Below are positions 1,947-57,834 of a stretch of 64,000 nucleotides of DNA, in pieces. The notes beneath the pieces were generated by a model. The model ran no database searches. It was not told where the DNA came from and saw only the letters and a program-made list of their open reading frames with translations. Source of the DNA: a virus; IMG/VR virus record IMGVR_UViG_3300034102_001514, positions 32,001 to 96,000 of that record. One strand, 5' to 3'. Position 1 is the stretch's first letter, and every line of letters begins with the position of its first letter. Both the position numbers and the translations under genes were made by a program.

Positions 1947-3803
1947 TTACGAGTTCGTAACTTCTTCAAACTCTATGTCTTGTGTACCACTATCCGTTTG
2001 GGTTGGTGGATTCTGATACATTCTTGTTGTGACTTTTGACCACGCAGATTCTAATTTTGTTTTATTATCTTTAACTAACTCTATATCTTTACTATCAACT
2101 GCGGATTTCAAATCCCTCATAAGACTTTCCAATTCCTCTTTTTCATCCGATTGAATTTTATCACTCAATTCTTGTATTTGTTTTTCGCTGGAGAATAAAT
2201 AACCATCAGCAGCATTTACAAGTGTAACCGCTTCTTGTCGTTTTAAATCCTCTTCACGATTTGTTTCCGCTTCATCCCTCATACGTTGAATTTCATCCTT
2301 GGATAATCCTGTTGAAGATTCAATTCGGACTCGTTGTTCTTTTTTAGTTCCCAAATCTTTTGCAGAAACACTCAAAATACCATTTGCGTCAATATCAAAC
2401 GTAACCTCAACTTGAGGGACTCCCCTTGGAGCCATTGGAATACCTTCCAAATGAAATCTACCCAATGGTCTATTATCTTTAGCCATAGGTCGTTCACCTT
2501 GTAAAACGTGAACCTCTAAAACTTGTTGATTATCCGATACCGTTGAGAATGTTTGTGATTTCTTTACTGGGATTGTTGTGTTAGCATCAATTATGGAGGT
2601 GAATACACCACCAAGGGTTTCAATACCCAAACTTAATGGAGTCACATCTAAAAGAAGAACATCTTTAACATCACCACCAAGAACACCACCTTGAATAGCA
2701 GCTCCAACAGCAACAACCTCATCTGGATTTACACCCTTACTTGGTTTTTTACCAAAGAACTTTTCAACGGCTTCTTGAACGGCTGGGATACGAGTAGAAC
2801 CACCTACAAGAATAACTTCATCAATATCACTCAATGAAACAGCAGCATCCTTAACGGCTTGTTGACAGGGTTTCATACATCGGTCTACAAGTGATGATGT
2901 TAAACGATTAAAATCCGATTGAGATATATTCGTTTCAAAGTGAATAGGACCGTCTTGACCTACTGAAACATATGGTAGGTTAATTGCAGTTGATGTTGCA
3001 GATGACAATTCAATTTTAGCTTTTTCAGCAGCCTCACGGATTCTCTGCATAGCCATTGCGTCACTTGACAAATCTACACCTTTGGTAGTTTTAATCATAG
3101 ATACAATATGTTCTACAATTATTTCATCAAAGTTATCACCACCAAGTTGAGTATCACCATTTGTAGATAAAACTTCAAATACACCATCACCCAATTCAAG
3201 GATTGATACATCAAAGGTTCCACCACCTAAATCAAATACTGCTATTTTCATATCAGTATCTTTTTTATTTAAACCATACGCAAGTGCTGCAGCGGTTGGT
3301 TCATTAATAATCCGTAATACTTCTAATCCAGCAATCTCACCGGCTTCTTTAGTAGCCTGCCTTTGAGAATCATTGAAATACGCAGGAACTGTGATTACCG
3401 CCTTACGAACACTTTCACCAAGGTATGCTTCTGCAGACTTACGAATGTTTTGAAGAACCATAGCCGAAATTTCTTGTGGAACATAATCTCTTCCATTTGC
3501 ATGAATGATAATAGTATCGTTAGAACCTTTCTTTACTTCGTATCCAACATTAAGATGGTCTTTGTTTAATTCAGAATATCGTTTACCAATAAAACGCTTT
3601 ACTGAATATAAAGTATTTTTAGGATTGGTTACTGCAACTCGTTTAGCGGCTGCTCCAATCTTTACTTCACCCTTATCAAAGGAAATTACCGATGGTGTTG
3701 TTCTGGCTCCTTCACCATTTACAATTACTACGGATTCACCGCCTTCAATTACGGAAATACACGAGTTGGTAGTTCCTAAATCAATTCCAATTATTTTGCT
3801 CAT
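1947..3803 (-). CDS. dnaK: Hsp70 chaperone DnaK
   Basis: [37 protein letters not shown]; C-terminal DIEFEEV. Confidence 0.99.
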
Positions 3804-23764: not shown

Positions 23765-24193
23765 TTTAGTTTGATTTAAGATTTACTGTCTTAATTCATA
23801 AACTTTTCGTAACGGGTAATAGCACCTTCTTCGGTATAAGCGTTGATGTAGATTTCAAATCCATTACCTTCTTTACTTACCACATAGGTAGTGGATTGGA
23901 CTCCTTCTCCTTTTTGGTAGATTCTTACGTTGTAGTTCATAACACTCATTTCTTATTACATAGTAAATATACAACAACCCCATTGGATAAAAAAGCGATG
24001 TGTGTTAACAAATTGTTAAGTTTTACGAAACCCAATAACCTTGATAGGACCACGGACTTGTATGGTTCTACGCTCAATCATCAGTTTGGTCATGTCCAAC
24101 AATTCGGTGTCTTGTTCGGAATCCAACCATTCTACAAACCATTTGGTTAATAACTTACGTTTCAGTGCGTTCATAAAAAAGTGATATAAAACA

Positions 24194-24433
24194 TTATTTG
24201 CTTAAATAGTAATGATACATATGACGTAAGGTATGAGTATCATAAGAAGGTATAGGAGTACAAGAATCTAAATCTACCTCAATACCATTAGAATAACATA
24301 AACGAAACTTATGAGTATCAGTATCCTTATCATAGGATGTATGGTATATATGAGACCATAGGTCACCACTTTCCCATTTATAACTTCCGTGATAACACAT
24401 CTTTAGAAGAGCTGACAATTGTTCAAAGGTCAT
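24194..24433 (-). CDS. Hypothetical protein
   Basis: Start reassigned to MTFEQL. Confidence 0.55.
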   Translation of the reverse strand: MTFEQLSALLKMCYHGSYKWESGDLWSHIYHTSYDKDTDTHKFRLCYSNGIEVDLDSCTPIPSYDTHTLRHMYHYYLSK

Positions 24434-24632
24434 AAGGTTCAATAGGTTCGTTAAGTTCAGCAATATAAACCACACATTGATATTTACCACCACGGAACTC
24501 TTCTTCCTTTTTAGCGATTTCTTGGGCGAGGTTAGAATCCGTAAACACCCCAACCACATAAGAGTGATTTTCTAATGAGGGTGTATCACGAACAACGCGA
24601 TAGGCTTGAACATAGTAGATGGGTTCATTCAT
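24423..24632 (-). CDS. Small phage protein
   Basis: YVVGVF..A...A motif; promoter TATATTTG just upstream. Confidence 0.65.
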   Translation of the reverse strand: MNEPIYYVQAYRVVRDTPSLENHSYVVGVFTDSNLAQEIAKKEEEFRGGKYQCVVYIAELNEPIEPYDL

Positions 24633-24680
24633 AAGACAAATATACAAAATAAATGGGAGATGGCCAAATATGGGTTAATA

Positions 24681-24728
24681 AAATACGAGGGAAAATATGA
24701 GGGAATAAACAAGGGAAAATACAAGGGA
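24681..24728. repeat. Four tandem 12-bp iteron-like repeats
   Basis: AAATACGAGGGA, AAATATGAGGGA, ATAAACAAGGGA, AAATACAAGGGA. Confidence 0.85.
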
Positions 24729-24931
24729 ATAAAAAAAGAGCCAGTTCCGTGTATACACGGGTTCAGAGGGGACTTTATTTCCCCAGCGAAAAAACCGGGC
24801 TCCGCATGAAAACCGACTACACGCCTTTCTAACTCATTGATATTCATACACTTACAAGCAATTGCCCCCCCCCTGCACGAGTATCTTTCATCGCCTTTGA
24901 TGGCTTACGGGCTTTGAGGGCTTATTTTATT

Positions 24932-25105
24932 TTACGCTCGCTCCAACTCTACCCATTCACCATATACCTTATAGTGTTGTTTTTGGAAGTATCGGATTTT
25001 ATTCAAAGCTTCCACCTGCTTCATTGGTGTTTCTGCATTCATTAACTTCTCCTTCCAATACCCAATCTTGGGGATATACCCATTGGAATACTTGACATTG
25101 TTCAT
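24932..25105 (-). CDS. Small hypothetical protein
   Basis: Read manually: MNNVKYSNGYIPKIGYW..YFQKQHYKVYG. Confidence 0.6.
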   Translation of the reverse strand: MNNVKYSNGYIPKIGYWKEKLMNAETPMKQVEALNKIRYFQKQHYKVYGEWVELERA

Positions 25106-25140
25106 ATACTATGTAATTTAACTGATTTTATTTTAGTTTA

Positions 25141-25692
25141 TTATCCAACCATTTTTTGTAACACATCCCAAGCTTTAGCAGCTGCGGGCCTTGAACTTGC
25201 ATCGGTGTAATATTTAACCACTTCCGAGTACATACGTCCTTCGTTAAGTACCTCATTTAGAATAGCTTCCACAGTACCAAACCTTGGTCGGTTGTTAACG
25301 TGAACATATTTAACTCCAGCTTTTAATTCAAATCCGTTATCAGTCTGAGCGCCTGAGTCTTCGTAATCCTCATATATGTCGTACATTCCGTTGAACTTTC
25401 CGTACTCCCACATATTTGCGAAAGAAGAAATTTGTTTGAAATCAACCTCATTAACTTGTCCACCTAATTTAGTACAAACATACACATCCAAACTATTTCC
25501 ACCAGCGAAAGAGTTTGAAGAAACCTTCACCACATATTCAGGAAAGAACTTCTTCGCGAACTGGCGAACCAATGAACTCGCCTCAGCGTGAGACACATAA
25601 ATCAGTTGTTTACCACTCCAATTGCGGAGTGATTTAACAGGCAGTTCGTAGATTTCGTTTTGAAGTTTGATTTTGATTTTCTCGTTTTTCAT
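25141..25692 (-). CDS. Hypothetical protein (LPD29-like)
   Basis: VRQFAKKFFP..VSSNSFAGGNSLDV..GKFNGMYDIYE; start reassigned behind boxed promoter. Confidence 0.6.
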   Translation of the reverse strand: MKNEKIKIKLQNEIYELPVKSLRNWSGKQLIYVSHAEASSLVRQFAKKFFPEYVVKVSSNSFAGGNSLDVYVCTKLGGQVNEVDFKQISSFANMWEYGKFNGMYDIYEDYEDSGAQTDNGFELKAGVKYVHVNNRPRFGTVEAILNEVLNEGRMYSEVVKYYTDASSRPAAAKAWDVLQKMVG

Positions 25693-25943
25693 ATCTCTCT
25701 TATTGATTACATAGTAAAGATACGACAAATAATTAAGCTGCCAAACTTTTAATGTTAAGAAATTGTTAAATCTTTCATCAAACCCCCAAGCGTGTTTATT
25801 AAAATTGGCTATTTTCTTAATCAAACTTTATTTTTTTTATATATTAGCTCTCCCAACATACTAAAGATACAACATATCTGCAATATGGCCAAATCTCAAT
25901 GTTATTAAATTGTTAAGTTTTCAGCCATTAAAGCTCACCCATG

Positions 25944-25958
25944 ATAGATAAAACCTAT
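25944..25958. promoter_or_regulatory. OxyR/LysR-like box
   Basis: ATAG-ATAAAAC-CTAT fits ATAGntnnnanCTAT. Confidence 0.4.
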
Positions 25959-25987
25959 CGGTGAGTTAACATTTGTAAACAAAAAAG

Positions 25988-26103
25988 TTATCAACACGAA
26001 ATTGTTAATAACTTTCCCCACAAAAAATTTTGCAAATCGCAAAAAAAGACCCTTCTGGTGCTCTCCCTTTCTGGGTCATTCTCTCACCCACGGGTTATCC
26101 ACA
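25988..26103. promoter_or_regulatory. Cluster of DnaA-box-like 9-mers
   Basis: TTATCAACA 25988, TGTTAATAA 26003, TTCCCCACA 26014, perfect TTATCCACA 26095. Confidence 0.6.
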
Positions 26104-26230
26104 AAAGTGTCTATTAAAATTGGATAAAAATTAAACCATTCGGATTCCTTCTAACTATTATACCATAAAGGGAGTAAAATCCCATTATTGGTAAAGAGTT
26201 TGTTAAAATGGTTCAACGAACCTCGTGTTT

Positions 26231-26269
26231 ACCATTATCTACCACTATCTCCCACTTTTTCCCACTTTT
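26231..26269 (-). promoter_or_regulatory. MraZ-operator-like 10-bp-phased GTGG repeats
   Basis: Minus strand GTGGG-N5-GTGGG-N5-GTGGT-N5-ATGGT. Confidence 0.5.
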
Positions 26270-26384
26270 GGAGGATTATAGAGGGCTTATATCTCTCCAA
26301 AACTGTATAAATTTGTGAGTTTTGGAGGATTATAAGTTTTTGGACTTATATTGACCCATTATTAGGTTGGGGACTTATGGGGCA

Positions 26385-26412
26385 TAAAAAAACCCCCATT
26401 GCTGGAGGCTTG
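26385..26412 (-). terminator. Probable intrinsic terminator
   Basis: Minus strand GCCTCCA-GCAA-TGGGGGT followed by a T run. Confidence 0.7.
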
Positions 26413-26442
26413 TAAAATTTCGTGATAACCCATCAAGGATTC

Positions 26443-26652
26443 TTAACAAATAGTCCTATCTATCCCATCAGAGTTCCAATCATAGTATTTTTGTTTCTTA
26501 TATCCCCTATCTAATATCTGAAGTAAAAAACCTTGTAAGGAATCCCATTCCCCATTGTTTATATCAGACCTTTTAATACTATGGGTTCTACCTACTGATT
26601 CTATTATCATATAATCATCCTTAAATTGTACTGAAATTATTTTATCGTTCAT
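26443..26652 (-). CDS. Hypothetical protein
   Basis: ORF in run. Confidence 0.55.
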   Translation of the reverse strand: MNDKIISVQFKDDYMIIESVGRTHSIKRSDINNGEWDSLQGFLLQILDRGYKKQKYYDWNSDGIDRTIC

Positions 26653-26836
26653 TTATCCCTTTATATTGTTTATAATATTCTTCAGTCATTAAGTGACCTC
26701 TTTTATCTGATACCGCGTTCTGAAATAATTCATAGCGTTCGACAATTAGATTGTCCTTTACTATCACCCAATTTCGTTCTTCGGTAATTGATTTTCTACC
26801 TAAAATTTCTCCAAGAGTCTTTTTCATATAATCCAA
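26642..26836 (-). CDS. Hypothetical protein
   Basis: ORF in run. Confidence 0.55.
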   Translation of the reverse strand: MDYMKKTLGEILGRKSITEERNWVIVKDNLIVERYELFQNAVSDKRGHLMTEEYYKQYKGINER

Positions 26837-27407
26837 ATGTTTCGTATTGTTTTTTGTTCCATACCCTATCCGCTAACTCTTGGGTATAAAGTGTAGAATA
26901 ATCTAAATCTTTGTATTCATCCAAATAATGAATTTTCCAATGTTCTACATCAATTTCTTTTAACTTTTGTTCCCAATCTTGGTTCATCCGCTGGTTAACA
27001 AACGGAATCTTTATTAAGTCCTCATACATATTCTCTGAACGTATCAAATGGGTTGGCTTTATTCCATAACGATTTAGTTGTCCAATTGTATCCCAAGTGT
27101 CATCCTCATCCAATCCTTGATTAAAGTATTCATTGTCCGACATCACCCAATCCTTAAAAGACATTCTTTGGGGTTCGTGTCGGACTCCTTCACCATCAAT
27201 CCAATGGGATATTCCGTGTCGGATTATCCACCAAGACACCGCTCTCCAATAAGGATTACGAATAGATACCCACAATTGGTCTTCATTATTCCATTCTAAA
27301 TTATGTGAGTGGTGTCCCTCAAATCCAATGGATTGTAAAAATCGGGTAACTACCCTGCTGCCCGTTCTCATGGGACCCCAATATCGGATTTTGTTTTCGT
27401 AAATCAC
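26796..27407 (-). CDS. Sulfotransferase family 2-like protein
   Basis: PMRTGS (5'-PSB-like), SIRNPYWRAVS (3'-PB-like), IRSENMYEDL. Confidence 0.75.
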   Translation of the reverse strand: MIYENKIRYWGPMRTGSRVVTRFLQSIGFEGHHSHNLEWNNEDQLWVSIRNPYWRAVSWWIIRHGISHWIDGEGVRHEPQRMSFKDWVMSDNEYFNQGLDEDDTWDTIGQLNRYGIKPTHLIRSENMYEDLIKIPFVNQRMNQDWEQKLKEIDVEHWKIHYLDEYKDLDYSTLYTQELADRVWNKKQYETFGLYEKDSWRNFR

Positions 27408-27777
27408 TTACACTTACATTTAGGATTTTTACCACATTTACACATTGGTGATGGGGTATCTTTCCATACGCCAATGAATAAAGTATAACATGACCATAAC
27501 AATATACTCACAATTAAAAATCCATCCACTATGTTAGACATCATTGTCTTTCCTTGCTACTATCACTAAAAGTCCCACTATGACTATTATCACAATAGGA
27601 ATTAAGATTATATTAATTTCCATACTACTTTTTCTCGGTTTTAATTAAATAAATTGCAATCACCAAAAGAATCCCACAAAATACTATCGTAATCATTGTC
27701 GTTCTCCATTATCTCATAGATTCATTTGGTGACCACTTATCGTATTCACATTCAAATTTCTTGCTACAAGCATTAAG

Positions 27778-27855
27778 AGCATCGCCCTTGCTAATCTCAA
27801 AATGCTTAATAGAAGCATCGCCCTTGCTAATCTCAAAACCATTACGAGCATCGCC
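27778..27855. repeat. 25-bp direct repeat x2 plus partial third copy
   Basis: AGCATCGCCCTTGCTAATCTCAAAA at 27778 and 27814; AGCATCGCC at 27847. Confidence 0.85.
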
Positions 27856-28092
27856 ACGAAACATTTTGGAATTTATTCCAAAATTTTCTTTAAGACACAC
27901 GAAATCGGATTGGACTTCGTGGACAATCGTGGGGTTATTGTTTCTATTTGTTTTCATTTTGTTTATAAGAAACATATGGTCGCTCTTGGTGAGAAAACCA
28001 CCCATCCGCGTCTTCCAAGTCATACACGATTGGAACTGATTTTATATTGTTTTTTTTGTTTAATGTTCGTTTGAACATTCCATAGATGGGTT

Positions 28093-31565: not shown

Positions 31566-32243
31566 TTAATTTGAATTATCAAAGTTTTTTCCGGGCTCGC
31601 CTATTAATTTTATTTCTTTTGGCGTTTCGGGTTTTAAATCATTTGGATAGTCATCAACTTTTACTTTTAAATTTGTTTGTTGTTCTACTATCTTAATAAT
31701 AGTTTTTTTTGTATTTAAATCACCAGAACCCCAACCCCAAGCCAAAGTGTTTTTCATTCTTTGTATTTCAGACTCAATATGTTCTATACTCTTGGTTATA
31801 AGTTGTATTTCATCTTCACCCATCTCAAATTCAACATTACACTCTTCTGCAATAGAAATCAAATCAGCAAATTCACCATTTTCAAAGTGAGATTTTACTT
31901 TTAAGAATATTTCATCATCACCCCCATTTACATCGGGATGTGTTATAGATGATAGTTTTTTATACAAAGATTTGAGGCGTTTAGACTTAACCTTTAAGTT
32001 TTTACGCTTTTGGGCTAAATTTAAACGCTTTTTCTCAAATTCTTTCTCCAATTCTTCAAAATCTGGAGCTTCTTCCGGTTCTTTAGATTTTTTTTGTAAA
32101 TTTAAACGAGCACTTTCATCATAATATTTTTTGAAATGTTTTTCAAAATCTAAAATGTAGTTCGTGAGCTCAATACGAACATCTTCTTCCTCCATTTTGA
32201 GGTATTCGTATTTCATTTTTAACTTTTTACGATTTCGGGTCAC
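31566..32243 (-). CDS. Coiled-coil protein with internal J-domain
   Basis: LKSLYKKLSSITHPDVNGG (HPD motif). Confidence 0.8.
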   Translation of the reverse strand: MTRNRKKLKMKYEYLKMEEEDVRIELTNYILDFEKHFKKYYDESARLNLQKKSKEPEEAPDFEELEKEFEKKRLNLAQKRKNLKVKSKRLKSLYKKLSSITHPDVNGGDDEIFLKVKSHFENGEFADLISIAEECNVEFEMGEDEIQLITKSIEHIESEIQRMKNTLAWGWGSGDLNTKKTIIKIVEQQTNLKVKVDDYPNDLKPETPKEIKLIGEPGKNFDNSN

Positions 32244-33825
32244 TTTCTTTCTCCGCCGGCTCTTCTACAATCATACATTCAGTAGTAAGTAGTGTTCCAG
32301 CGACTGAAACTGCTTTTTCAATAGCAATACGAGTCACTTTTGTTGGGTCAATGATACCCTTTTCAATCATATTGACAAGGTGTTCACTAACTACATCGTA
32401 ACCCATAGAAGTGTCTGAAGCGTAATTTGCGTCTAACAATCCGAACACTTTGTGGTGGTCAAGCCCTGCGTTCTTTAGAATTGCTTCCATTGGAGATTTA
32501 CAAGCCTTCATCACAATTGCGTATCCCAATTGTTCATCACCTTTTGGTTGGTTAATGTTTTTGGAACAATGATACAAAGCAGCACCACCACCCGCGACAA
32601 TACCCTCTTCCAAAGCAGCTTTAGTTGCAAGGAGTGCGTCATCAAATAGGTCTTTCTTTTCTTTCATCTCAACCTCTGATTGAGCACCCACTCGGATTAC
32701 AGCCACACCACCACTCAATTTAGATAAACGCTTGTGGAGTTTCTCTTTTTCAAAGTCTGATTTTTGTTCTGAAATTTCATTTTTGATTTGGTCAATGCGA
32801 AGTTTCAAAGCATCCGCGTTTCCGTGACCACCAATCAAAGTAGTTTCTTTTTTGTTAGACACCACTTTATCACAAGAACCCAAATCTTCCAAAGTTGCGT
32901 CTTCCAACTCAGCGTCAATAGTTCCAAACATCTTACCACCCAATAGAGCAGCCATATCACGCAGGATTTCAGTTCGTTCACTACCAAAGCCAGGAGCTTT
33001 TACAGCAAGGGCCCGTAAGGTTCCACGAACGGAGTTTACAACCATTGTTGCCAGAGCTTCACCTTCTACATCGTGAGCTACAACCAAAATTGGTTTACTT
33101 TGAGTTGATACTGCTTCAAGGATGTGAATGATTTGGTCCATTGTAGAAATCTTACCATCATACAACAATACAACTGGCTCATCAATAACACAATTAAGTT
33201 TTGTTTGGTTGTTGATAAAGTAATGAGATAGGTATCCATTATCAAACTGAAGTCCTTCTACGATTTCAAGTTCATCCTCATTTGAGTTTCCCTCTTCAAC
33301 TGTAATTACACCATCACGACCAACTTCTTTAACTGCGTCAGCAATCATACCACCAATCACCGAATCACCATTTGCAGAAATGGTTGCAACTTGTTTTACT
33401 TGTTCGTTATCTTCAACTTTGATTGAGATTTCTTGAGTTAACATTTTGGTAATTTCAGCCACAGCAATTCCCATACCTCTACGAAGTAGAATTGGATTAG
33501 CACCCATCTCAACCACATCCATACCCTGGTTGAAGATTGATTGAGCCAATACAGTAGATGTAGTGGTTCCATCACCGGCGTGGTCTGCGGTTTGTTGGGC
33601 GGTTTCTTTAATAACCTGCGCCCCCAAGTTTTTAGCTGCATTACTAAACTCAATAGATTTAGCCACCGTAACACCATCTTTTGTGATGTGAGGTGCGCCG
33701 TCTTTTTGAATGATTACATTACGACCACGAGGTCCAAGTGTTACCTTAACCGCATTGGCTAATTCGTTTACACCTTCCAAGAGCTTTTCTCTTGATTGTT
33801 TTCCGTGAAATACTTGCTTTCCCAT
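32227..33825 (-). CDS. groL: Chaperonin GroEL
   Basis: TLGPRGRNV, TKDGVTVA, GDGTTT, GIIDPTKV; no GGM tail. Confidence 0.98.
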   Translation of the reverse strand: MGKQVFHGKQSREKLLEGVNELANAVKVTLGPRGRNVIIQKDGAPHITKDGVTVAKSIEFSNAAKNLGAQVIKETAQQTADHAGDGTTTSTVLAQSIFNQGMDVVEMGANPILLRRGMGIAVAEITKMLTQEISIKVEDNEQVKQVATISANGDSVIGGMIADAVKEVGRDGVITVEEGNSNEDELEIVEGLQFDNGYLSHYFINNQTKLNCVIDEPVVLLYDGKISTMDQIIHILEAVSTQSKPILVVAHDVEGEALATMVVNSVRGTLRALAVKAPGFGSERTEILRDMAALLGGKMFGTIDAELEDATLEDLGSCDKVVSNKKETTLIGGHGNADALKLRIDQIKNEISEQKSDFEKEKLHKRLSKLSGGVAVIRVGAQSEVEMKEKKDLFDDALLATKAALEEGIVAGGGAALYHCSKNINQPKGDEQLGYAIVMKACKSPMEAILKNAGLDHHKVFGLLDANYASDTSMGYDVVSEHLVNMIEKGIIDPTKVTRIAIEKAVSVAGTLLTTECMIVEEPAEKESDPKS

Positions 33826-55914: not shown

Positions 55915-57834
55915 TTAATATTTAACAATTTTCACAACTTTTTCTCTATCCGCCGCAACTAACTTAACAAAGTATACTCCATTTGGTAGGTCTTTAACAT
56001 TTATTCCGTGTAGTTGGAAACCAATGTCCGTAATCTTTGTTTGGTAAACTTGTGATACTTGACCGTTGATGTTGTAAATTACACCAGTAAAGTCAGAATT
56101 TCTATACTCGTTAAAGTGTTCAATCACTAACCAACCATCAGTAAGGTCAGTAACGGGATTTGGATACACTTTAAATCCGGTCATCAATTCAGCAAGGTCA
56201 GGATTCATTGAGTTTCTATTCACTACCGAACCATCGTTTGGTGATGGTTTAACTGATAGGTCTTCTGCTTTTTCATTACCAGCAGATTTGTCAAAGATTC
56301 TCAAAGGCGAGGTCTGCCATCCAAGTGGATTAATAACATTAAATACAAATGTGAATTGATTAGTCATTGTTTCAACTAACGATGGGTTCATCTTATCCTC
56401 GTGTCCTGCGAAAAATACTCTACCTTTTTCTACTGAAATTAATGATGTCCATTTTGATACATCATCACCAACTTTGATAGAACTAAATTCAAAGATTGTA
56501 GTATCAAACTCAATACCCATTTGAGCAGCACCAATCTTATTACCAAATGTAAACATAGTCACGGGTACTTCCATCTGGTTGTTTGCAATCACCAATTTAG
56601 GAATACGGAATTGAACCGTGTCATCTCTATTAACCATATAAACCGCTGGGTCAAGGATGTATTCAGTTCCATTGCCTGGGTTTGCAATTCTTGCCATAAT
56701 AACAGCAGGGTTGTTATAACCCGTGGTAGTTGCGTCACCTACTACATAAATGTATGGATTAATTGAGTCAAGTGAGTTTACAATAGTATCAATTTGGTAT
56801 CTTCTTGGTGAAGTTGTCCAGTTTGGAGCAGCCGTTGCTGATGTAGCGGTGATATACTCACTTGGCCATAATACTGATACGTTGTTTACGCCTGTAAATA
56901 AACCATCCCAATCCGTAGATTGAAGAGCCAATCTATTAAACACAGCAAATGCGTCAGAAATCGTTACTGTTTGTGATTGGTTTACATCACCTTCATACCA
57001 CTCAATACCACTCAAAGTATCTTGCATTGAAGTGTGGTTTGCTAATTTGTATGCGTCCGTAATTGAAATAGCACCACCATCGGACATAGTGTCAGTTTGA
57101 GCGGTAATTTTTAAGTTCCAAAATGCGGTATCAAGTGGATGTGTAAATGATACTAAACCCAATGCGTTTGTTGAGTCGGATGTAATTGGCTGCCAAGTTG
57201 ATTGTGGAGTTGACTTTAATCTCTTTGATGCTGAGAACCATACTCCTTGTGCTGGAGTTCCATCTGCGTTTTTAACTCTGATTGGGAATGTAATTGGTTG
57301 CATTTGGAATGCTCCACCATAATTGAATAGACCCAAGGTCACATCCGTTCCGTTTCCGGTAGTAGCGAGGTTTGAATACGAGGTAGTTCCCGTAGTAGCC
57401 ATTGAGTTTACCACACCTTGGTATGTAGAACCATGTGTTAATCTTACCTTAAACATAGCACCATCAGACCAATCAAAGTTTTGATTGTTTCCGGTGTAAG
57501 TTCCGATGATATTTACATAATCACCGCTTTTAAAGAACGAACCATACTTGTCTGGTATAGAAAGAGCAGTTGGTCCCCAAAAAACTTGAATATTTGAAAA
57601 CTTTGTGTTATCGTAGAACAATCTGAACTGAACGGCTTTTACAGCACTTGCAGTTGGGTTTGCAAAGTGAATATAAATATCCGTGGTTATAGATGTATCC
57701 TCAAGGGTAAACAAAGTATCAACCAAGATATATGGGCTATTTGAGTTTGGAGCCAGTAATATCTCGGTCTTACCATTTTGTGCTACAGCACCAATTGATA
57801 AAATTCCCAATAAAAGGAATAATAATTTTTTCAT
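55915..57834 (-). CDS. T9SS-sorted scaffoldin-like protein (cohesin - CnaB - dockerin - cohesin - type A CTD)
   Basis: Signal peptide; AVQFRLFYD and AAQMGIEFD cohesin-like strands; GDVNQSQTVTISDA; VYPNPV..LPNGVYFVKL..KIVK. Confidence 0.82.
   Translation of the reverse strand: MKKLLFLLLGILSIGAVAQNGKTEILLAPNSNSPYILVDTLFTLEDTSITTDIYIHFANPTASAVKAVQFRLFYDNTKFSNIQVFWGPTALSIPDKYGSFFKSGDYVNIIGTYTGNNQNFDWSDGAMFKVRLTHGSTYQGVVNSMATTGTTSYSNLATTGNGTDVTLGLFNYGGAFQMQPITFPIRVKNADGTPAQGVWFSASKRLKSTPQSTWQPITSDSTNALGLVSFTHPLDTAFWNLKITAQTDTMSDGGAISITDAYKLANHTSMQDTLSGIEWYEGDVNQSQTVTISDAFAVFNRLALQSTDWDGLFTGVNNVSVLWPSEYITATSATAAPNWTTSPRRYQIDTIVNSLDSINPYIYVVGDATTTGYNNPAVIMARIANPGNGTEYILDPAVYMVNRDDTVQFRIPKLVIANNQMEVPVTMFTFGNKIGAAQMGIEFDTTIFEFSSIKVGDDVSKWTSLISVEKGRVFFAGHEDKMNPSLVETMTNQFTFVFNVINPLGWQTSPLRIFDKSAGNEKAEDLSVKPSPNDGSVVNRNSMNPDLAELMTGFKVYPNPVTDLTDGWLVIEHFNEYRNSDFTGVIYNINGQVSQVYQTKITDIGFQLHGINVKDLPNGVYFVKLVAADREKVVKIVKY

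Follow-up and report, generated by a model that had tools for sequence, protein, structure and literature searches.

What is a large phage keeping in a gene-free stretch of 750 nt that is crowded with sequences resembling the binding sites of host regulators? The stretch lies at 25693-26442 of the window (the whole 64,000-nt stretch of DNA that was analysed, bases 32001-96000 of a 125.8-kb IMG/VR record with an estimated completeness of 70%), and only one noncoding segment of the genome, the tRNA cluster, is larger. A first-pass annotation had described it as a collection of sites for DnaA, MraZ and OxyR, acting either as a DnaA-assisted replication origin or as a decoy that titrates these host factors as the phage genome replicates. 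It had overlooked that much of the region consists of two copies of an early-promoter-like element and of terminators.

The phage is a large, lytic-type phage infecting Bacteroidota. Nearly all of its ORFs of at least 120 aa (111 of 112) lie on the minus strand. The record contains 13 tRNA genes and encodes a T4-like replisome (family-B polymerase, clamp loader and DnaB-like helicase), ribonucleotide reductase, thymidylate synthase, dCMP deaminase, DnaK, GroEL and numerous glycosyltransferases. The DnaK and GroEL homologues are full-length (window 1947-3803 and 32227-33825), and a 639-aa protein (55915-57834) ends in a type-IX secretion C-terminal sorting domain. Judging from this sorting domain, from the closest cellular relatives of the DnaK protein (of the 80 closest, the majority belong to Bacteroidota by record titles, at 53-64% identity) and from the TTG / TAnnTTTG type of the phage promoters, which we take to be a Bacteroidota consensus, the host phylum is Bacteroidota. 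The family-B polymerase gene is adjoined by three Mom-family genes (DNA base modification; genome 112260-112874, 119037-119753 and 119815-120576) and a DruA-like gene (genome 110326-111513).

The elements of the stretch and its flanking genes are given here in the order in which the gene strand (minus) reads them:

26443..26652, minus strand: upstream gene, 69 aa (ORF list)
25693..26442: gene-free candidate control module between two minus-strand genes (ORF lists), with blocks conserved in relatives
26383..26411, minus strand: predicted intrinsic terminator behind the 69-aa gene (terminator scan), identical in the relative L010
26266-26280 and 26320-26334: direct copies of TTTTGGAGGATTATA, plus an inverted arm (repeat scan)
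26286-26304 / 26318-26336: 19-nt inverted repeat, within the repeat region 26266..26336
26227..26266, minus strand: MraZ-operator-like array, three GTGG and one ATGG at a period of 10 bp (score with a host matrix, uniqueness in the genome)
26225..26234, minus strand: TGGTAAACAC, the best-conserved piece of the module, overlapping the fourth box (alignments)
26107-26123 and 25792-25808 (the latter on the minus strand): copies of the 17-mer CCAATTTTAATARACAC (repeat scan)
26095-26103, plus strand: perfect DnaA-box 9-mer TTATCCACA, one of three in the genome (motif scan)
26029..26043: TTTGC-N5-GCAAA in an A/T-tract block (motif scan)
25984..26015: palindrome whose 13-nt arms are DnaA-box-like (TTATCAACA / TTATTAACA) and whose 6-nt spacer varies
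25934..25965: hairpin or dyad CTCACC...GGTGAG, enclosing ATAG-N7-CTAT at 25944-25958
25862..25916 (25892->25862), minus strand: P2, second copy of the putative early promoter, with the upstream element TTAACA-N5-TAACA and TTG-N-TATCTTTA
25715..25769 (25744->25715), minus strand: P1, copy of the putative early-promoter family directly upstream of the 183-aa gene (promoter pattern)
25141..25692, minus strand: downstream gene, 183 aa, ATG at 25692, used as the query for relatives

The 183-aa protein matches no Pfam family, and PHROGs gives just one family, of unknown function (E = 2e-4). Its structure model (pLDDT 87.9) returned nothing from the PDB at E <= 0.001 with Foldseek, and the best VIA-align score (Z 8.5) reflects a generic alpha/beta motif and does not rise above background; as modelled, the protein appears to have no meaningful structural relative and no DNA-binding fold match. 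Neither blastn of the region nor tblastn of the 183-aa protein found a match in 50,697 phage records, and a search with a neighbouring 680-aa protein matched only distant uncultured or unrelated phages. With the 183-aa protein as query, relatives were found in 7 viral contigs and in 240 stretches of metagenome DNA, the best 80 of which were retrieved; the samples come from lakes, rivers, estuaries and the sea.

A scan of 25693-26442 located every motif that had been listed, among them the four GTGG-type repeats in exact 10-bp phase (26227-26266, with GTGG on the minus strand). Set against shuffled sequence, the array stands clearly above chance: it is the sole such 10-bp chain in the genome, and none arose in 50 block-shuffled genomes. 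The DnaA-like boxes are only mildly enriched. The 611-nt region holds two boxes with at most one mismatch where 0.2-0.3 are expected (6 of 500 shuffles reach two), and six with at most two mismatches where about three are expected (32 of 500 shuffles reach six). Since the remaining motifs are single occurrences (genome-wide, ATAG-N7-CTAT occurs twice and TTTGC-N5-GCAAA once), their reality would have to rest on conservation in relatives. There, the array, the palindrome and ATAG-N7-CTAT recur, whereas the perfect DnaA box is not conserved and the TTTGC dyad is lost in distant relatives.

Read along the gene strand (26266->26227), the array consists of four 10-nt units with the cores GTGG, GTGG, GTGG and ATGG, in that order. 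Two sources define MraZ boxes as GTG(G/T) separated by six-nucleotide spacers, in three or four copies (PMC12957436; bioRxiv 10.1101/2022.02.09.479790). The first gives three boxes for most bacteria and four for some mycoplasmas, and cryo-EM places four MraZ subunits on four boxes (PMC12957436); the second describes the triple repeat as unique in the B. subtilis genome (bioRxiv 10.1101/2022.02.09.479790). The phage array fits this definition, with at least three direct GTG(G/T) boxes at six-nt gaps and a 10-bp period.

MraZ is present in 60 of the 61 genomes sampled from the phylum Bacteroidota. Twenty-five distinct mraZ upstream regions of the phylum, 24 of which have at least two phased boxes and 11 at least three, yielded the host unit consensus [A/T]GTGG[G/T][A/G]AA[A/T] and a three-unit scoring matrix; the phage's own host is assigned to the phylum only. 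The phage array reaches 38.3 bits with this host-derived matrix. No other site in the phage genome exceeds 10.5 bits, the best site in 100 shuffled genomes scores 24.4 bits, and true host operators scored by leave-one-out have a median of 24.1 bits (range 9.2-37.0). In five host genomes (2.6-5.0 Mb), GTGG-N6-GTGG-N6-GTGG occurs once, at mraZ, in three and is absent in two; a reversed control of the pattern gave zero in all five. The earlier claim of a match to the MraZ consensus is thus borne out beyond expectation at the level of sequence, the array matching the unit of the phylum and being kept in related phages.

The architecture of the host operators is not reproduced in the phage. In the Bacteroidia-type host regions inspected, the boxes run directly into the -7 element of the mraZ promoter. 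The phage array is neither directly upstream of an mraZ gene nor over its promoter, and no canonical promoter (TTG-N17-21-TAnnTTT[GA]) was found within ~335 nt of it, P1 and P2 being at least 335 nt away. A captured host promoter was considered and ruled out, because identities to host mraZ loci run to no more than 23 nt; the best short identities lie nearly all inside the array.

Conservation was surveyed, at a cut-off of at least 25 bits, in those related loci that extend 1200 nt or more upstream of the gene (50 loci). An array was found in 24 of them, distributed as follows by identity of the neighbouring protein:

70-100% identity: array in 9 of 14 loci, the other five scoring 20.7-24.5 bits; all on the gene strand
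57-69% identity: array in 13 of 17 loci; 3 on the gene strand and 10 on the opposite strand
40-56% identity: array in 2 of 19 loci; both on the gene strand

Many of the related loci are near-duplicates, so that 31 loci hold 15 distinct arrays. In these 15, the core positions are 93-100% conserved and the phase is kept, while the spacers vary. Their unit matrix resembles that of the host (r = 0.95; r = 0.88 at the non-core positions), a likeness that is partly circular because the 15 variants were picked with the host matrix. In relatives with sufficient upstream DNA, the module is conserved in blocks from the array to the palindrome, and relatives that lack the array also lack the palindrome, which argues that the module comes and goes as a whole. 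Within it, TGGTAAACAC is identical in 11 of 13 aligned relatives and differs by one change in the remaining two, and its orientation stays the same in relatives in which the other boxes are flipped. GGTAAACAC occurs a single time in the genome. In three relatives (L038, L073 and L009), a second, lone ATGGTAAAC-type box is found ~52 nt downstream of the array, about five helical turns away; such a box is present in several relatives and has diverged in the window.

The interval between the terminator and the array turns over more freely, with two or three direct or inverted repeats that are particular to each lineage. The TTTTGGAGGATTATA copies of the window are replaced by unrelated, lineage-specific repeats in more distant relatives, and in L010 the inverted repeat has kept its arms while its loop has diverged. 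A further conserved noncoding block, of the type GATG-N3-TTATCACGAAA, lies between the stop codon of the 69-aa gene and the terminator (26420-26442) and is also seen in relatives. As for the 17-mer, its copy at 26107 is conserved in relatives, and that at 25792 is deleted in L010, the closest relative among the viral contigs. The block around TTTGC-N5-GCAAA is likewise conserved, with the dyad itself lost in distant relatives.

On the far side of the palindrome, the module carries its promoter-like elements. Bacteroidota-type sigma-A promoters have the consensus TTG at -33, about 19 nt, and TAnnTTTG at -7. P1 and P2 conform to it and are the sole matches in the module to TTG-N17-21-TAnnTTT[GA]; they stand in tandem, 147 nt apart, and we read them as host-type early promoters that would drive the 183-aa gene. 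P2 is followed by an A/T run (25827-25846), and in relatives it usually has a perfect TAnnTTTG, followed by a conserved A/T run. Both belong to a family of ~12 elements in the genome that share the layout TTAACA-N5-TTAACA, TTG, a gap of about 19 nt and TATCTTTA. The whole family lies on the gene strand, an ATG follows every member after 20-30 nt, and these elements are probably early promoters of the phage. With the last part given as TATCTTTACTATGTAAT (TTAACA-N5-TTAACA, TTG, about 19 nt, TATCTTTACTATGTAAT), such promoter-like elements lie on the minus strand of the window at about 1942, 7809, 9916, 20377, 24019, 25769, 25916, 29399, 38193, 39072 and 39908, and at genome 119034. A third promoter, 'P3', near 26150-26200 was tried and dropped, as it fails the strict promoter pattern.

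The proposed sites for DnaA and OxyR fare less well than the array. Boxes for DnaA are present, a perfect one included, yet of 12 aligned relatives L020 alone retains this perfect box (26095-26103), and a cluster of several consensus TTATCCACA boxes conserved among relatives was not found; what is kept is an arm of the palindrome. The palindrome is present in 35 related loci, and in 9 of these one of its arms is a perfect TTATCCACA. This arm reads TTATCAACA in the window and TTATC[C/A]ACA in its conserved form; the opposite arm is TTATTAACA throughout. On the gene strand, the palindrome forms a hairpin followed by a T-run, and its invariant pairs make up the only consensus structure that RNAalifold returned for the module. 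It may bind a protein, terminate transcription in both directions, or do both. DnaA-like and MraZ-like boxes also overlap as motif families, because the complement of TTATCCACA contains GTGG. In the 400 nt upstream of host mraZ genes, DnaA-box-like 9-mers (at most one mismatch) occur at 2.10 per kb, against 0.17 per kb in the remainder of these loci (~12-fold), a density that is partly due to this shared core; perfect boxes were seen there at 3 of 25 loci. OxyR sites consist of four ATAG-type elements at 10-bp intervals, which amounts to two ATAG-N7-CTAT dyads. The module has one such dyad (25944-25958), which corresponds to a single half-site and is not specific to OxyR, and the assignment to OxyR finds no support. 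Of 22 distinct variants, 13 have ATAG-N7-CTAT no more than 150 nt from the palindrome, so the dyad is nonetheless a real element, and some factor or a hairpin is likely to account for it.

Taken as a whole, the module would be the main intergenic control region of the phage, composed of a terminator for the upstream gene, lineage-specific repeats, the four-box array, conserved blocks, a palindromic hairpin and two tandem early promoters that would drive the next gene. Within it, the array may well be a mimic of the host MraZ operator, making this a control region that recruits host MraZ; we hold this to be about evenly balanced between right and wrong, and the same applies to the binding of MraZ to the array as such. 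The match to host operators, the uniqueness of the array in the genome and the conservation of its cores and phase are observed directly. Searches of the phage and of four relatives, two of which are 98-100% complete, recovered neither an MraZ nor an AbrB/MazE-type domain. With no such candidate on the phage side, and with the cores held at the host consensus while the adjacent repeats turn over, the sequences favour the conserved host protein MraZ over a phage protein that diverges along with its sites. A simple operator acting on a promoter seems unlikely, because no canonical promoter lies within ~335 nt and the orientation of the array is free.

If MraZ does bind, two consequences can be pictured. 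An MraZ oligomer sitting between two terminators could act as a barrier or switch that separates the upstream unit from the early promoters, a local role that we put forward tentatively. Alternatively, replicating phage genomes could soak up the scarce MraZ protein; titration as the sole function seems rather improbable to us. The slight lean towards a local role comes from the array always lying within the same conserved blocks. Further counterpoints weigh on the MraZ reading in general: relatives carry the array in either orientation, unlike host operators; most of the distant relatives (40-56% identity) lack it, with 2 of 19 having one; and a phage protein of an unrecognised family could read the same boxes.

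This last point can be turned into a full alternative, in which the phage itself encodes a regulator, from some unrecognised family, that uses the array as its operator, the resemblance to MraZ sites being convergent or irrelevant. Most of the small genes around the module have no family, the array is embedded among conserved blocks that match no host site, and its orientation varies, all of which would suit such a regulator. It would have to explain, on the other hand, why the likeness extends to the non-core positions of the 10-nt unit (the partly circular r = 0.88), why the array outscores most true host operators, and why the cores hold the host consensus in relatives whose other repeats have been replaced; in addition, no AbrB/MraZ-like domain was found in the phage. 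We regard a phage regulator as unlikely, and we rate at a similarly low level the proposal that the module is the replication origin of the phage, with the lineage-specific repeats and the 10-bp array serving as iterons for a phage initiator. Two variants of the origin can be drawn up, one in which the DnaA-like palindrome and the A/T tracts serve host DnaA and unwinding, and one in which P2 and its A/T run prime replication through an R-loop, as is reportedly the case at oriF and oriG of T4. A phage with its own T4-like replisome needs an origin somewhere, and the module is unique, large and noncoding; its variable repeats adjoin conserved sites that resemble those of host factors, 9 of the 35 related loci with the palindrome have a perfect TTATCCACA as one of its arms, and A/T tracts are present, with the arrangement of P2 and then an A/T run conserved. 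Against this, the replication genes are 50-65 kb distant, no initiator-like gene adjoins the module, and the 183-aa protein next to it matched no DNA-binding fold. GC skew has no inflection at the module, although this is a weak test that says little because all genes lie on the same strand. Furthermore, the perfect DnaA box of the window is not conserved, the palindrome reads equally well as a terminator hairpin, and the array resembles a host operator rather than typical iterons, which are 17-22 bp long.

A further alternative places the product in the interval itself: the DNA between the array and the palindrome could give rise to a small RNA or to a peptide of 24 codons (ATG at 26079), with the array as its upstream control site. 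The conserved CA-rich blocks, followed on the gene strand by three terminator-like elements, would fit a short transcript, and the 24-codon frame is kept in several close relatives. The frame (window 26005-26079, minus strand, with its stop within the palindrome) has equal length in L033 and L040 despite nucleotide changes, is shifted and so lost in L034, and is absent in distant relatives, which counts against a peptide. Against an RNA, an Rfam scan of 24000-28000 gave chance-level rows only (none better than E = 2.7), the gene strand folds no better than shuffles (z of -0.78 and -1.52), no canonical promoter lies upstream, and neither a covariance-model match nor covariation outside the palindrome was found, the invariant palindrome alone folding. 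Metatranscriptome contigs from four RNA runs span the flanking genes as well as 25830-26019 and leave 26020-26440 uncovered, a pattern that proves nothing either way because these contigs carry no strand information. We consider this alternative the least probable, with a small chance of being correct.

How does the candidate MraZ site compare with systems that are already known? Like the MraZ boxes of the mraZ/dcw promoter, the phage array has the extended 10-nt unit of Bacteroidota operators; unlike them, it has no mraZ/dcw neighbour, lies away from recognisable promoters and occurs in either orientation. Phage control DNA is known to contain sites for host factors, such as LexA boxes in temperate phages, OxyR at the mom promoter of Mu and DnaA at lambda pR. 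The array would share with these that a cis-element of the phage is read by a host regulator, and would differ in that the regulator would be MraZ and that no regulated target is evident. The general principle is thus established, while the operator of a division regulator in a phage would be new; a full-text literature search turned up no description of MraZ sites in phages. Iteron-type origins with DnaA boxes (P1 oriR, F oriS, pSC101) similarly combine repeats, DnaA-box-like sites and A/T tracts in one noncoding stretch. The module differs from them in having no adjacent initiator gene, in its repeats being 10-bp MraZ-type boxes, and in its DnaA-like sites coming down to one non-conserved box and one hairpin-forming palindrome. 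Titration sites have a natural precedent in datA of E. coli, which titrates DnaA, and to our knowledge there is no natural phage-borne decoy for a division regulator. What the array would have in common with such sites is that it is a promoter-free candidate for high-affinity binding whose copy number would rise with genome replication. Synthetic decoy arrays for transcription factors are described as well (PMC7826281, PMC8599769).

MraZ is among the most conserved bacterial regulators, and its physiological role is still debated. It would be a bold generalisation, and one that we think will probably fail, that a family of large freshwater and marine phages of Bacteroidota carries a high-affinity MraZ operator copy with a function during infection. 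If it were to hold, hundreds of arrays on replicating genomes could capture scarce MraZ oligomers and derepress the division and cell-wall operon or, alternatively, MraZ occupancy could report the division state of the host to the phage. Phages would then target the control of this operon at the level of DNA, a division regulator would be added to the few host factors known to be read or titrated by phages, and a ready-made high-affinity site would be at hand for studies of MraZ in Bacteroidota. Should the module turn out to be an origin, these uncultured phages with a T4-like replisome would gain their first candidate for one.

A search of viral contigs with the family-specific array pattern matched two known relatives and nothing else. 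Among the matches listed, unrelated viral contigs carry noncoding four-box GTGG-N6 arrays with MraZ-like units (L237, L294, L236, L220, L221/L261/L273, L248, L246 and L228), with no mraZ-like frame downstream of the array. Given these four-box arrays, the phenomenon may extend beyond a single phage family.
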